From a virus, in UHGV virus genome UHGV-0474209: 41,825 nt of DNA. One strand, written 5' to 3'. The number at the start of each line of letters is the position of its first letter. Within the stretch, counting starts at the first letter, position 1. This document shows positions 12,794-33,644 of the stretch, one piece after another. Under the pieces are notes generated by a model. That model made no database searches. It was given only the letters and a program-made list of their open reading frames with translations, and had not been told where the DNA came from. The position numbers were made by a program, and so were the translations under genes.

Positions 12794-12842
12794 CCTAGTT
12801 TATATTCTAACGCTTTGTATGCGTTTGCACAAATAATTCCTT

Positions 12843-12916
12843 GTACCTTTAGCTCAGTTGGTCAGAGCAGACGGCTCATAACCGTCCGGTCGTAGGTTCG
12901 AGTCCTATGGGGTACA
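12843..12916 (+). tRNA. tRNA with CAU anticodon (Met or, more likely, lysidine-type Ile2-like)
   Basis: Cloverleaf: acceptor GTACCTT/GGGGTAC, D-arm GCTC AGTTGGTCA GAGC, anticodon stem GACGG/CCGTC with loop CTCATAA, T-arm GTAGG TTCGAGT CCTAT; G1-C72 pair argues against initiator; no encoded CCA. Confidence 0.8.
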
Positions 12917-13039
12917 TAATATTGTCAATTTATAAAAAACGAAAACGTTTTTTTGTATGCGATGTGCTTTTCTTTTGATATACGAAATTATTAGGAGTAA
13001 TATGGGGTTAAATGAACTATTATTTAGGGGGAATAACTT

Positions 13040-16264: not shown

Positions 16265-17413
16265 CTATAAACCATTCTCTTCTAATTGACTGATTAAATC
16301 AGTTTTCATTTTATCAGTAATGTGAGTATAGATTTTATTTGTAACGTCGGCATCCTCATGGCCTACTCGATCCATAATAGCCTTCAAAGGAGTATTTTGT
16401 TCGGCTAGTAATGACACGTGGGTATGTCTTAGTATGTGAGAGGTTAAACGCTTGTTAATTCCACTTTTTTTACCTGCAGCAGCAAAAGAACGATTGAATG
16501 AACTATTTTGCATAGGCGTACCTGTTCGGGTCACAAAAACGAATCCATCATTATTAAAATCAGATTCGGATAACAGGTCTAGTTTATTTTCCTCAAAAGT
16601 ACGTTTTACTAGCTCAACCGTCCGTTGGGTCAATTGAACATCTCTATTTGATTTCTGGGTCTTAGTTGGTCCTATCGCTTTTTGTTTGTAACCTTTGCTG
16701 TAGTCGATTGTACCTCTAATGTGAACGATATTATTATCCAAGTCAAAATTTCCTTCTCTTAATGCGACTGCTTCGCCAAAGCGAACTCCTGTTAAATACA
16801 TAAATTCAGCTAATCGACCGACACGAAAGGTTGACCGACTTTTATAAAGTTGATCTAGGATCAATTTTACTTCATTTTTTTCAAGGTACTTATCCTCAAT
16901 ACGTTCTATATCTTCTAGGGTTTTCGCTTTAGGGATAATCTCTACGTTTTCAACAGGGTTTTTATAAGCGTAGCCGAGTTTAATCGCATATTTAAATACT
17001 AAGTTAAGATTCGACTTGATATGGGCGATATAAGTCTGAGAATAGTCGAGAGAGGCAAAGAAGTTTTGCAACAATCTTGTATCAATATTTGAAATCAGAA
17101 TGTCTTCGTTTATATTCTTGAAAATAATTTTTCGAATGGCTACATACGTGTTCTTTGAGTTAGGTCTCAAAGATTTAAAATAATTATTTTCCCATTCAGT
17201 ATAAACTTGCTGGAAGGGGACTTTCTCGATTTTCTTTTTAGCCAGTTCATTTTCTATTTTATCATTCAGGATACTTAGCGCTTTATTCCATGCTTGTTTT
17301 GATTGGCTATTTAGTACCACTGATTTTTTCCGAGTCTTTTCAGTATACGGGTCTTTGTAGCGTTCAATAAACTTGAAACGCCCATCTTTCAATGGTTCTA
17401 CCCACATTGTCAT
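16265..17413 (-). CDS. int: tyrosine integrase (phage integrase family)
   Basis: C-terminal catalytic region ...LTSHILRHTHVSLLAEQNTPLKAIMDRVGHEDADVTNKIYTHIT (R..H..R..Y), N-terminal SAM-like domain. Confidence 0.9.
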   Translation of the reverse strand: MTMWVEPLKDGRFKFIERYKDPYTEKTRKKSVVLNSQSKQAWNKALSILNDKIENELAKKKIEKVPFQQVYTEWENNYFKSLRPNSKNTYVAIRKIIFKNINEDILISNIDTRLLQNFFASLDYSQTYIAHIKSNLNLVFKYAIKLGYAYKNPVENVEIIPKAKTLEDIERIEDKYLEKNEVKLILDQLYKSRSTFRVGRLAEFMYLTGVRFGEAVALREGNFDLDNNIVHIRGTIDYSKGYKQKAIGPTKTQKSNRDVQLTQRTVELVKRTFEENKLDLLSESDFNNDGFVFVTRTGTPMQNSSFNRSFAAAGKKSGINKRLTSHILRHTHVSLLAEQNTPLKAIMDRVGHEDADVTNKIYTHITDKMKTDLISQLEENGL

Positions 17414-30490: not shown

Positions 30491-30510
30491 GATTCGGTAA
30501 CTGAAGCCAT

Positions 30511-31535
30511 AGTAAAAAAGACTGCCGCGGTATGAAACGGCAGTCAATGAACTATGGGTAGCTGATTAGAATAGTTCAAAGGTATTTTACACCTAAAACA
30601 AAAATAAAAAAAGACAGCCGACCACTGGCTGCCTTGGAAAAGAACTCTCGTCTAGTTTCCGCTAGACAAAATAATTTTACCACAAAAACAGACCGCTGGG
30701 GATTGGTCAGCGGCCATGAGCTGATTGAAATATGCTTTTAACCCGATTAAAAAGGAGGGGCCAGCTCATCACTATTGTACACCTAGTAGTGCAAGAAAAA
30801 AAGACCGCTAGGCAGTCAGTTAGCGGTCAATGAGCCGATTGCGAAAGTTGTTTGTAGTCAACAAAAGAAAATATCAGCTCTTCATAATTGTATCATAAAA
30901 AGGACCGCTTTTTCATATGGCAGTCCCTAAGCTAGTGTAGTATTCTTGGATTATTTATGGATTTTTCTAGCTCAAATATATTGTACACCTATGTGAATCA
31001 AAGTGAAATAACAAAAAAATAAATTAAGAAGCCTAGGTTTTATGAATTTGAAAGGTATAATGCCTGGTTTTCGTTAGACAAAATAGTTTTATCACAAAAA
31101 TAGACCACTAAAAAAGCGGTCTACGAGCTAGATGAAATAGGTTTTGACGTTAACGAAAATTAGAAAGGAAAGAACTAGCTCATTTAGATGATACCATAGA
31201 AAAAGACCGCTGAACAGTTATATCAGCGGTCCCTGAGTTAGGTCGTTGTGCTTATAATAAGTGGGTTGTATTTTTATTTAACCTAACTCATTGGGCTAGT
31301 GCAGTGTCAAAATTGTCGGTCTCAAACTTCAAGAAAATTACTAGCCCTAGTCTTATTTTACACGGAGATAAGTAAGAAAAAAAGACCGCTGAGCAAAAAA
31401 ACAGCGGCTTGTGAACTAGAAAAATTCGGGTAGTATGGAAAAATTAGAAACCAGCTCACACTAAAAGTTTATCAAATTCATTTTTCCGTTTCAAGATCGT
31501 ACAAAAAAACGCTGGGAAAGTTCCCAACGCCTCTT
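30511..31535. repeat. ORF-free array of about 9 imperfect repeat units: conserved box (TTTTAYCACAAAAAYAGACCRCT) + GC-rich stem-loop GACCGCT-N6-10-AGCGGTC + second variable long-range stem
   Basis: Hairpins at 30520-30545, 30613-30631, 30691-30715, 30803-30828, ~30901-30926, ~31102-31122, 31205-31231, 31384-31407, ~31510-31530; no ORF >=60 aa on either strand over 1.08 kb. Confidence 0.7.
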
Positions 31536-31583
31536 TATGTATAAAAATTTGACAAGATAATTATACCATAAGGAGTGACTAAT

Positions 31584-32006
31584 TTGATGGCTTTATTACC
31601 AGAAGTAGACGCAAATAATACGAAAATGAGTGCACGAAAAATTTTATCTCAGTATCGCAAATGGGAACGTATCGCAGGCAAAGCAGCTATAGATATCAAA
31701 TCACCACTTCTAAGTGATATGCCCCGAACATTGGGTGTATCGATAAATAAGCCAGAAGATGGTCTATTGGAGCGTGTGTATGCTGAGAACGAACGAGATG
31801 CCATTCTAAGAGCTTTAGCCTCACTTTCCTGGAGAAGTCGGAAAATACTAGCCATGACTTATTGCGAGCCTGAAAAGGCTTCTGTGTATGAAATAAGTTT
31901 AGAATTGCACTTCAGTGAAGTTCACGTGAAACGATTACGACACATTGCATTGTTGGAATTTGCGGAAGCTTATAAGCATGGGCAATGTCTGATTTACAAA
32001 AAATGA
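31584..32006 (+). CDS. arpU: ArpU-family late transcriptional activator (sigma-70 region-4-like)
   Basis: Resemblance to ArpU/phage late regulator family (…SWRSRKILAMTYCEPEKASVYEISLELHFSEVHVKRLRHIALLEFA); AAGGAG RBS; GTG 31575 alternative start. Confidence 0.7.
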   Translation: MMALLPEVDANNTKMSARKILSQYRKWERIAGKAAIDIKSPLLSDMPRTLGVSINKPEDGLLERVYAENERDAILRALASLSWRSRKILAMTYCEPEKASVYEISLELHFSEVHVKRLRHIALLEFAEAYKHGQCLIYKK

Positions 32007-32175
32007 TACTTTTTTGATACTTTTTGTTCGAAAAAAGGTGATAGAATAGTAGTGTAAAAATAGTGTACAAGACGGCACACAAAAAAATAAATGATGAATG
32101 GAGTTGACAAACTTCATTTCCGTTTAAAGTTCGCTGTGCTGTCTATTGTTATCAAATATTTTTATTAAAACTTAT

Positions 32176-32232
32176 AGATTTCGAATATGTTCTTTTGTAT
32201 AATATTTAGTGTAGAGAAGTTAAGATGAGTAG
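32176..32232 (+). promoter_or_regulatory. extended -10 promoter-like element TTTTGTATAATATTT + conserved leader (copy 1)
   Basis: TGTATAAT at 32196-32203; ~45-nt near-identical to copy 2. Confidence 0.4.
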
Positions 32233-32384
32233 CTCCATTTTTATGACTCTGCGCAAGTTAAAAAAATGATATACCTTGAGAATGATTTTTTAAACAATTC
32301 AAAAAACGATCTTACTCATCTTAACAACTCTACAGGATGTGAGTACATCACGTTCTTTTTTGCTGTTAAATTAAAACATACTAG

Positions 32385-32440
32385 CATGATTATTAGTCTT
32401 TTTGTATAATATTTGCGTAGAAAAGTGAAAAGATGGTGGC
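32385..32440 (+). promoter_or_regulatory. extended -10 promoter TTTTTGTATAATATTT + leader (copy 2) upstream of toxin-like ORF
   Basis: TGTATAAT at 32403-32410. Confidence 0.45.
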
Positions 32441-32493
32441 TAATCTCTTGAATAAAGGGGTGATGCCTATGGTTCATAGCTTTATCCCTAGAA

Positions 32494-32577
32494 GGGAGTA
32501 GGCATGTCTGTTTATCAAGCGTTGTCGCTGATGATCGCATTTGCGACGTTAGTGTTGCTGATTACAGATCACAAGAA
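32494..32577 (+). CDS. candidate type I toxin, Fst-like 27-aa hydrophobic peptide MSVYQALSLMIAFATLVLLITDHKNKK
   Basis: GGGAG RBS 6 nt upstream; single TM helix + lysine tail; convergent antisense transcription unit overlaps its 3' end. Confidence 0.45.
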
Positions 32578-32690
32578 CAAAAAATAACCATCTAACACTT
32601 TAGCAGAGAGTAGATGGTTAAACCATTGAAATTAAGCCACCGTCTTTTTAACGGTTCTACATGGGGCGTGTTACCAGCACGTCCTTTTTC
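32572..32690 (-). ncRNA. candidate antisense antitoxin sRNA (~110 nt) convergent to toxin mRNA
   Basis: Minus-strand promoter TTGATT-16-TATAAT (TGaTATAAT) at 32698-32725 and minus-strand terminator (CCATCTA...TAGATGG + TTATTTTTTG) at 32570-32617. Confidence 0.4.
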
Positions 32691-32729
32691 TATGTCCATT
32701 ATATCATGTGAATAAAGAAAATCAATCAA

Positions 32730-32755
32730 GATCGCTTCGGCGGTCTTTTTATTTT
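32730..32755 (+). terminator. rho-independent terminator (GATCGC-TTCG-GCGGTC + TTTTTATTTT) for toxin transcript
   Basis: UUCG tetraloop hairpin then T-run. Confidence 0.5.
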
Positions 32756-32985
32756 GGATACAAAAATAGACCACTACCGGGTAGTAGTGGTCAGGAATTA
32801 AATGAAAAAGATGTTAAAGGGTTGTTAGACAAGTATAACATCATAGCGTTTACATAGCAATACAAAAAAGAGCCACTGTTTCCGCAGCAACCCTTTAGTG
32901 TAACAAGTAACTATAAATATATCATCCTTGGCCATGTATTTCAACACACAAAAATAGACCGCTGTTTCCGCAGCAATCTATCTGT
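32755..32985. repeat. three further units of the AAAAATAGACCRCT box/hairpin repeat family downstream of ArpU
   Basis: 32761-32791 (9-bp stem GACCACTAC/GTAGTGGTC), 32858-32890 and 32942-32978 (…AGACCGCTGTTTCCGCAGCAA…). Confidence 0.5.
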
Positions 32986-33037
32986 GAAACGTAAACAATT
33001 TATACATTAAGTATACAATAATAACGCTTACAGAGCA

Positions 33038-33262
33038 ATGAGAACTCACTGGCATGTGTCGTTAAACAATAGGTACCCACTGCCAATGAAAGGACAACAT
33101 AAACGTGTTGTGATGTCTGTTCAAATGAAGGCGAAGTATTCGATTGTAGAAATGATCAGAGAGGCAACGCCAGTAGAGGTTGATCATTGCAAGCTAGTCT
33201 ATTGTGGGTGCGGCCGTTGGAAAGATGCTCATATACAAGAAAACATCAGAAAATACGTTTAG
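33038..33262 (+). CDS. hypothetical protein (74 aa, His/Cys-containing)
   Basis: ORF upstream of terS. Confidence 0.3.
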   Translation: MRTHWHVSLNNRYPLPMKGQHKRVVMSVQMKAKYSIVEMIREATPVEVDHCKLVYCGCGRWKDAHIQENIRKYV

Positions 33263-33287
33263 TTTGTTTTAGTTTGGAGGTGATTTT

Positions 33288-33644
33288 ATGAAACTTACTA
33301 ATAGGCATAATAAGGCTATAGAATTGCTGTTCGAAGGCTCTTTAAAGCGGATTGAAATCGCTGAAGAACTAAAGATAAGCGAACAGACACTTTACAATTG
33401 GTTAAAAGACGAAGATTTCACTCATGCTTATGATGAATATGTAAAAACTATTATGGGTAAGTCATCAGGTAAAGCGTTGAATACAATGTTGAAGCTTTTA
33501 GCAGCCAGATCAGAAATGGTTCGTTTTAACGCAGCTAAAGATATTCTTGATCGTGGAGGATTCGCTCCTGTTGATAAGAAGGAGATTACTTCAATTGAGC
33601 CTCCTGTATTTAAGGATGACATCAGTGGTGAGCCAGATGGTTAA
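33288..33644 (+). CDS. terS: terminase small subunit (HTH-containing, 118 aa)
   Basis: HTH IEIAEELKISEQTLYNWLK; overlaps terL start by 8 nt. Confidence 0.6.
   Translation: MKLTNRHNKAIELLFEGSLKRIEIAEELKISEQTLYNWLKDEDFTHAYDEYVKTIMGKSSGKALNTMLKLLAARSEMVRFNAAKDILDRGGFAPVDKKEITSIEPPVFKDDISGEPDG

Follow-up and report, generated by a model that had tools for sequence, protein, structure and literature searches.

Features of the locus

The DNA analysed here is UHGV virus genome UHGV-0474209, a stretch of 41,825 nucleotides (nt) that we call the window; it consists of host DNA followed by a prophage, in which the late regulator gene arpU (31575-32006; TIGR01637) precedes the packaging genes terS (at 33288) and terL. 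Between arpU and terS lies a compact region (32385-32755) with a 27-codon open reading frame (ORF), an upstream promoter and a terminator for its mRNA, and a convergent promoter that would produce an antisense RNA (Table 1). We regard this region as very probably an intact type I toxin–antitoxin module of the TxpA/RatA (Hol_Tox/rli28) family, carried by an Enterococcus prophage of the E. avium/raffinosus group. An earlier note on this DNA had proposed a type I system there, in which the mRNA of a short peptide with one transmembrane helix is met at its 3' end by a convergent antisense RNA some 110 nt long, and had placed it in the Fst family; homology and conservation support the general idea, and it is the family assignment that had to be corrected.

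Three curated models recognise the module: Pfam Hol_Tox for the peptide, Rfam rli28 for the sense RNA and, just under its threshold, Rfam RatA for the antisense RNA. The promoters, the ORF, the terminators and the RNA helices are all conserved across 34 distinct homologues. Because promoter-like matches occur in the region at chance frequency (eight observed against 10.1 expected in the promoter scan), it is homology and conservation that make the case for the module, not consensus matches; terminator-like hairpins are strongly over-represented (12 observed against 1.5 expected in the terminator scan). The present analysis establishes the membership of the sequence family, the anatomy of the module, its conservation, its coding signature and its RNA helices. 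No match was returned by the PADLOC defence-system scan. A weak, sub-threshold match to ComI (NCBIfam; 16 bits, cut-off 55) was rejected.

Table 1. Positions of the predicted features of the module, of its truncated upstream copy and of the neighbouring minus-strand units (window coordinates)
Feature	Position	Strand	Details
Truncated paralogue of toxin mRNA	32193-32362	+	TATAAT at 32198-32203; alignment to module, repeat and inverted-repeat analysis, terminator scan
Toxin promoter	32382-32410	+	Weak -35 TAGCAT (32382-32387); perfect -10 TATAAT (32405-32410); TG abutting at 32403-32404
Toxin mRNA	32417-32692	+	About 275 nt, predicted ends; Rfam rli28 and BsrG matches; fold
Clamp, 5' arm	32417-32441	+	Partner is 32635-32660, both in the fold of the single sequence and in the consensus of 34 homologues
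Anti-Shine-Dalgarno/Shine-Dalgarno	32484-32498	+	UCCCU at 32485-32489, AGGGAG at 32493-32498; local sequestering hairpin
Toxin ORF	32504-32587	+	27 amino acids, MSVYQALSLMIAFATLVLLITDHKNKK; hydrophobic helix at residues 6-21, charged tail
Clamp, 3' arm, also core antitoxin target	32635-32660	+	ACCGUCUUUUUAACGGU; nearly invariant in 34 homologues, outside the search pattern
Toxin mRNA terminator	32663-32692 (hairpin 32663-32685)	+	GGGGCGTGTTACCAGCACGTCCT and T-run; terminator scan
Second plus-strand hairpin	32728-32755 (stem-loop 32728-32747)	+	UUCG loop, T-run, upstream of the antitoxin -35; terminator scan
Antitoxin promoter	32725-32698	-	TTGATT, 16-nt spacer, TATAAT, canonical TGn (TGaTATAAT); 10 of 12 positions (promoter scan)
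Antitoxin RNA	32692-32580	-	About 110 nt, predicted ends; fully complementary to the toxin 3' untranslated region and last codons
Antitoxin terminator	32619-32579	-	Stem 32586-32619, AACCATCTA...TAGATGGTT, 10 bp in fold; U-run 32579-32585
Mini-unit promoter	About 33036-33008	-	TTGCTC-17-TATACT; terminator 32983-32952
Mini-unit promoter	32944-32916	-	TTGAAA-17-TATATT; terminator 32896-32867
Mini-unit promoter	32860-32832	-	TTGCTA-17-TATACT; terminator 32792-32769

Toxin peptide and its mRNA

The 27-codon ORF is present with the single hydrophobic helix and charged tail that had been ascribed to its product, and it is preceded by a ribosome-binding site that is indeed well placed, GGGAG at 32494-32498 lying 5 nt 5' of the ATG at 32504. 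Residues 1-26 of the peptide match Pfam Hol_Tox (PF16935) with 33.1 bits (cut-off 23.3; E 5e-8), and the ORF also matches phrog_9488. NCBI and UniRef already list an identical 27-residue peptide, on 176 contigs, under the name "putative holin-like toxin [Enterococcus avium]", and RefSeq gives the name "putative holin-like toxin" to homologous ORFs on Enterococcus faecalis plasmids too. Of 42 full-length homologous loci, 40 retain the ORF together with its start, often GTG or TTG, and its stop. In the alignment of homologues the residues at codons 13, 14, 16 and 17 (F, A, L and V) are invariant and each is encoded by two to four synonymous codons, and this synonymous variation is therefore a coding signature.

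The promoter of the toxin mRNA had been described as a strong extended -10. The octamer TGTATAAT does stand at 32403-32410 on the plus strand, but its TG abuts the TATAAT instead of forming TGnTATAAT and the -35 is weak, so that the strength was overstated; a generic promoter scan did not list it. A -10 element, TATAAT or TATACT, is nonetheless kept at this position in nearly all 34 homologues, with a poor -35 throughout. Over the full length of the model (1-186), Rfam rli28 (RF01492) matches the sense RNA at 32395-32574 with 133 bits (threshold 45), and the 3' half of the RNA matches Rfam BsrG (RF01412) at 32468-32685 with 39.6 bits (E 3e-7), which is below the threshold of 55. The minimum-free-energy fold of the mRNA has -104.8 kcal/mol, a z value of -8.7 against shuffled sequences.

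The toxin terminator has a stem, GGGGCGTG...CACGTCC, followed by a T-run, and corresponds to the terminal hairpin of the Rfam BsrG model; among the homologues the stem sequence varies and the pairing is kept, as judged by eye from an alignment whose MAFFT register was too poor for clean counts. Since the mRNA has this terminator of its own at 32663-32685, a sense RNA of about 275 nt is predicted, and the readthrough transcript of about 340 nt that had been expected to run on to a UUCG terminator gives way to it, this earlier and conserved terminator having been missed. The UUCG hairpin itself was recovered by the terminator scan at 32728-32747. It is restricted to the closer relatives, a different hairpin occupying the same place in others, and it is probably a backup terminator or an insulator.

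At its 5' end the mRNA pairs with the segment of the 3' untranslated region (UTR) that lies just before the terminator, forming a long helix that we call the clamp. Twenty-two pairs of the clamp are kept in the consensus fold of the 34 homologues, with many changes from G-C to G-U, on the 3' side, and with one pair that varies from A-U to C-G, U-A or U-G. The consensus fold also contains a hairpin within the ORF with many compensatory changes, and a covarying helix that includes the start codon and the bases that follow it. The Shine-Dalgarno (SD) hairpin is paired in 91% of cells. An alternative partner of the anti-SD UCCCU is the upstream AGGGG within AGGGGUGAUGCC at 32456-32467, a pairing that equals the hairpin of the Rfam rli28 consensus; the covariation counts for the SD/anti-SD hairpin are not decisive, being blurred by register shifts in the alignment.

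Antitoxin RNA

The minus-strand promoter directed towards the ORF that had been described earlier, TTGATT-16-TATAAT with a TG, was found at 32725-32698. Its arrangement is conserved in most homologues, where it is usually nearer to the consensus than the toxin promoter is. The antisense RNA of about 110 nt overlapping the 3' end of the mRNA, to which this promoter would give rise, is likewise supported by homology and conservation, with ends that are predicted; its complement covers the 3' arm of the clamp, the toxin terminator and the last codons of the ORF, and it is predicted to fold into two 5' hairpins and a terminator. The 5' arm of the mRNA and the core of the antitoxin are alike because both pair with the same 3' segment. 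That the antitoxin terminator overlaps the stop codon of the ORF also proved correct: the hairpin (32586-32619) is followed by a U-run that is the complement of AAA AAA T, the Lys-Lys-stop codons, and so overlaps codons 26-27 and the stop. This terminator is conserved among the homologues, with changes from C-G to U-A and from A-U to U-A.

The antisense strand matches the full Rfam RatA model (RF01776) at 32615-32701 (minus strand) with 48.9 bits, against a threshold of 49 (E 3.7e-5). Fifteen related loci were scanned in the same way, and rli28 was found in all of them, with RatA above its threshold (49.7-67.9 bits) at the convergent downstream position in 12. Because the equivalent position passes the threshold in so many of the related loci, the homology to RatA is not in real doubt.

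Truncated upstream copy

The earlier note had also reported an ORF-less second copy of the promoter and leader upstream of the module. The promoter copy is real, 15 identical nt at 32193-32207, 207 nt upstream of that of the module; what follows it is more than a leader, namely a whole toxin mRNA paralogue (32193-32362) that has suffered internal deletion. Its alignment to the module indicates that the leader hairpins and most of the ORF were deleted, leaving 14 codons, MSSSIFMTLRKLKK; what is left of the C-terminal codons, of the 3' arm and of both terminators (antitoxin and toxin) can still be made out. The 5' arm of this paralogue (32210-32242) pairs, as an inverted repeat, with its own diverged 3' arm (32302-32334), a terminator was found at 32334-32356 by the terminator scan, and the fold has -44.8 kcal/mol; a transcript of this copy would be about 150 nt long. 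The paralogue is 93-98% conserved in 11 related prophage loci. To us it looks like a tandem paralogue that has decayed; the likeness of its 3' half to the RatA target also makes it a possible decoy for the RatA-like RNA.

In Vagococcus acidifermentans (L144:4379-5133), two complete modules stand in direct tandem, 460 nt apart, each with rli28 and RatA matches. Tandem duplication of the module therefore does happen, which fits the origin proposed for the truncated copy.

Distribution and genomic context

The collection was scanned with a pattern of 21 specified bases, and 16 viral contigs and 25 genomic loci from Enterococcus, Vagococcus and Listeria were recovered by pattern scans; a 14-base pattern gave almost only chance matches, with three real loci among those listed. 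A DNA search of plasmids found the module in 342 records (248 from Enterococcus, 39 from Staphylococcus and 32 from Listeria), the best matches, at 92-93% identity, being on E. raffinosus megaplasmids, and related copies on E. faecalis plasmids being 84-87% identical. Part of the module is also found, at the DNA level, in staphylococcal plasmids and phage contigs. E. avium ATCC 14025 (L153) has a module identical to that of the window. A megablast search with 32000-33300 gave no near-identical match among deposited phage genomes, and distant blastn and tblastn searches retrieved no more than a few phage records, all fragmentary; curated phage genomes seldom carry the module.

Of the 16 viral contigs, 15 have an ArpU homologue immediately before the module, a phrog_1202 gene immediately after it, or both. 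The position holds in lineages whose ArpU is about 46% identical and whose ORF74 is about 55-59% identical, and in which the module is about 83% identical in DNA. Such arpU or phrog_1202 neighbours are absent from 22 of the 25 genomic loci. From these counts the intergenic site between arpU and the phrog_1202 gene appears as a cargo hotspot, and the module behaves as cargo at this site, between the late regulator and the packaging genes. The phrog_1202 gene of the window is the plus-strand ORF 33038-33262, of 74 amino acids and with no Pfam match; its place between the module and terS is the same in nearly all related prophages, at identities as low as 55%. One related prophage (L131:3616-4211) has two transfer RNA (tRNA) genes between arpU and the module, which supports the view of this site as a hotspot.

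Proposed mechanism and alternatives

Toxicity, antisense repression, RNase III dependence and biological role are projected here from relatives of the module, the transcript ends are predicted, and the mechanism that we propose is to be read in that light. Toxicity and RNase III-dependent repression would follow the characterised examples EF3263 (PMC2887945) and TxpA/RatA (PMC8167048), respectively. The weak promoter would yield a toxin mRNA of about 275 nt, whose 5' end would be clamped to the 3' UTR over about 22 bp and whose ribosome-binding region would lie in local helices; because of the clamp and these helices, the full-length mRNA is probably stable and poorly translated. The stronger convergent promoter would supply an abundant RatA-like RNA of about 110 nt, able to pair over its whole length with the toxin 3' UTR. 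By analogy with TxpA/RatA and BsrG/SR4 of Bacillus subtilis (PMC8167048), RNase III would then cut the duplex and the toxin mRNA would decay, and any toxin mRNA left over would be held in a stable, poorly translated state by the clamp and the local helices. Should the antitoxin be lost, for example together with the prophage, the stable mRNA could be translated, the 27-residue peptide would enter the membrane, and growth arrest or death would follow, the outcome being post-segregational stabilisation of the prophage.

Several points weigh against this interpretation. In the toxin promoter the -35 is poor and the TG stands at a non-canonical place, the ends of both transcripts are predictions, and the RatA score in the window is 0.1 bit under the Rfam threshold. 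The SD is unpaired in the consensus fold and sequestered in the single-sequence fold. The invariance of the 5' arm of the clamp is uninformative because that arm was fixed by the search pattern, and it is the conservation of the 3' arm that is informative. Finally, the role in stabilising the prophage is argued purely from analogy.

An unlikely alternative, though one with several observations in its favour, is that the peptide serves the lytic programme, instead of or besides addiction, acting as an accessory holin-like or abortive effector when lytic transcription from arpU overrides antisense control. This would suit the position of the module beside arpU and/or the phrog_1202 gene and terS in nearly all the viral contigs, including the lineages with the diverged ArpU, and the family name "holin-like", and hokW-sokW is reported to aid the release of phage Sp5 (PMC8621323). 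However, plasmids and chromosomal settings outside phages harbour the module far more often, as the counts given above indicate, three plus-strand terminators lie between arpU and the region downstream of the module, and "holin-like" is an annotation label, not a tested function.

It is very improbable that the module is a decaying relic without present function, as its truncated neighbour appears to be. That paralogue, 207 nt upstream, and two clearly degenerate related loci (L141 and L147) might suggest such a fate, but in the window each element is intact (the two promoters and two terminators, the SD, the ORF and the clamp), more than 10 independent loci encode an identical peptide, and the flanking RNA elements are conserved.

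We give still less credence to the reading of the plus-strand transcript as a non-coding regulatory small RNA (sRNA), rli28, with the 27-codon ORF as an incidental feature. This is how the RNA was first catalogued in Listeria, Rfam files it as an sRNA gene, and for a long time it was considered non-coding in work on Listeria (PMC9484302). Against it stand the retention of the ORF in 40 of 42 full-length loci, the synonymous codons behind its invariant residues, the Pfam family match of the peptide and the toxicity of a homologous peptide on overexpression (PMC2887945).

The Fst/par-like system of the earlier note, in which an RNA II-like antisense RNA would act on the translation initiation region through 5' direct repeats and the two RNAs would share a bidirectional terminator, is refuted at the level of family membership and hardly deserves further consideration: beyond the superficial likeness of a short single-helix peptide with a charged tail and convergent transcripts overlapping at their 3' ends, the Fst_toxin profile search that the note had proposed gave no match to the peptide even at E<=10 (Pfam scan), as against a Hol_Tox match above its cut-off, and the RNAs match rli28, RatA and BsrG. 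The resemblance to par(Fst) fails in the RNAs as well, according to the T1TAdb paper (PMC8594479), which describes antisense RNAs that overlap the ORF end in TxpA/RatA systems and do not in Fst/RNA II systems, where pairing takes place outside the overlap. In the window the antisense RNA extends into the last codons of the ORF, the terminators are separate (hairpins at 32663-32685 for the toxin and 32586-32619 for the antitoxin), and complementarity outside the overlap is at chance level: the best duplex between the antitoxin and the toxin 5' region (32417-32530) was equalled by 31 of 100 shuffles, and the longest exact complementarity there is 7 nt.

Comparison with known systems

Among the closest described counterparts of the TxpA/RatA-family module of the window is EF3263 of E. 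faecalis, a 27-residue peptide of the TxpA family that is toxic on overexpression and whose mRNA is faced, in the 3' UTR, by an antisense transcript of about 110 nt (PMC2887945); this locus is also known as the ref40/ref46 module (PMC3074167), and detection of txpA/RatA transcripts has been described (PMC7724050). The two thus share a hydrophobic peptide of the same length and family, a convergent antisense RNA of about 110 nt directed at the 3' UTR, and the genus. Strain V583, moreover, has part of the module in two copies, as a 167-nt repeat (drm1/drm2), which recalls the truncated copy in the window (PMC2887945, PMC3074167, PMC7724050). However, EF3263 is chromosomal and lies next to mazEF, whereas the present copy is borne by a prophage of the E. 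avium/raffinosus group, between arpU and terS. Listeria plasmids carry an rli28 RNA with a small ORF beside a convergent ratA (PMC9484302), and in these pLM80-type loci RatA lies about 50 nt downstream, in the same order and orientation as here, although on another replicon and in another genus; the authors matched the ORF to BsrH, and the regulatory relationship was left untested there.

Among the B. subtilis systems, TxpA/RatA, BsrG/SR4 and BsrH/as-BsrH, which belong to prophage-like elements (the skin element and the SPbeta prophage), have convergent antisense RNAs overlapping at the 3' end, and RNase III cleaves the duplex, as would be expected here by analogy (PMC8167048, PMC3834814); the RatA-RNase III mechanism has been reviewed (PMC8167048). 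The Rfam BsrG consensus pairs the 5' end of the mRNA with the region just before the terminator, like the clamp of the window, and the terminal hairpin is shared too. The differences are that TxpA has 59 residues against 27 here, that the B. subtilis RatA is much longer, and that the BsrG model matched below threshold in the window (39.6 against 55 bits). SR4 is known to block translation as well, which the present antitoxin may or may not do. SprG/SprF of Staphylococcus aureus, deemed a homologue of TxpA/RatA, has the convergent 3' overlap as well, and one copy of it lies on a phage-derived island (PMC8167048); unlike the present ORF with its single start, SprG1 gives two peptides from alternative starts. 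The par system of pAD1 (Fst/RNA II) resembles the module in being a type I toxin–antitoxin system of Enterococcus with a short single-helix toxin and convergent RNAs, but its peptide belongs to another family, its RNAs pair through 5' direct repeats outside the overlap, its terminator is shared and bidirectional, and its antisense RNA does not overlap the ORF, none of which is true of the module in the window (PMC8594479).

The module is thus a genuine and well-formed, if ordinary, example of a family that has already been described, and nothing in these results is likely to surprise specialists. Apart from the corrected family assignment, the comparison makes clear that rli28, catalogued by Rfam as an sRNA, is the mRNA of a type I toxin. 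The example is borne by a prophage and keeps its place between arpU and terS across diverged Enterococcus prophages, which fits the view that type I modules stabilise mobile elements. The 5'-3' clamp, together with the similarity of the mRNA 5' arm to the antitoxin core, provides a concrete model for toxin silencing in this family that can be tested by mutation.

Antisense units around arpU and other observations

Upstream of arpU there is a gene-free stretch of 1.08 kb (30491-31574, minus strand) with about nine predicted tandem mini transcription units directed opposite to the phage genes. An extended -10 (TGTACAAT, TGTAAAAT or TGGTAAAAT) is followed in each by 45-130 nt of sequence, a GC hairpin of the type GACCGCT...AGCGGTC and a T-run, the T-runs lying at about 31509, 31383, 31204, 31100, 30901, 30802, 30688, 30612 and 30519. 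The stretch is 95-99% conserved in related prophages, and one unit (30601-30717) weakly matches Rfam Ref1C, "Enterococcus sRNA 1C" (35 bits, E 0.01, threshold 90). Three further mini-units are predicted between the module and ORF 33038-33262 (32760-33037, minus strand; Table 1), with terminators 15-60 nt past their promoters.

The minus-strand mini-units were considered as additional antitoxins and rejected, their complementarity to the toxin mRNA or to the truncated paralogue being no better than that of shuffled sequences; a few z values near -3, for mini-units against the antitoxin, are explained by the GC-rich terminator hairpins that they share. In a diverged prophage whose ArpU is 46% identical, small opposite-strand units of different sequence stand at the equivalent places (L128:1260-1620 and L128:3400-3830), so that the layout appears to persist where the sequence does not. 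Two of the RNAs predicted there, in tandem and of about 130 nt each, start with GGGUAGC.(.)CUCCUUA and end with GCUACCC and a terminator, termini that imply a closing 5'-3' stem and a CUCCU motif resembling an anti-SD.

These arrays of antisense mini-units flanking arpU are a more unusual feature of the neighbourhood than the toxin–antitoxin module itself. One could imagine that the module, the truncated paralogue acting as a decoy and the arrays together form an RNA "gate" around arpU, which would block readthrough into the packaging genes in the lysogen and, upon induction, would let through a 5'-extended toxin transcript lacking the clamp, whose peptide would serve as a late lysis or abortive effector; we consider this idea speculative and quite improbable.

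In the host part of the window there is a tRNA-Met (CAT) gene (12842-12917, plus strand), about 3.3 kb before a minus-strand ORF of 382 amino acids (16265-17413) that is a candidate for the prophage integrase.

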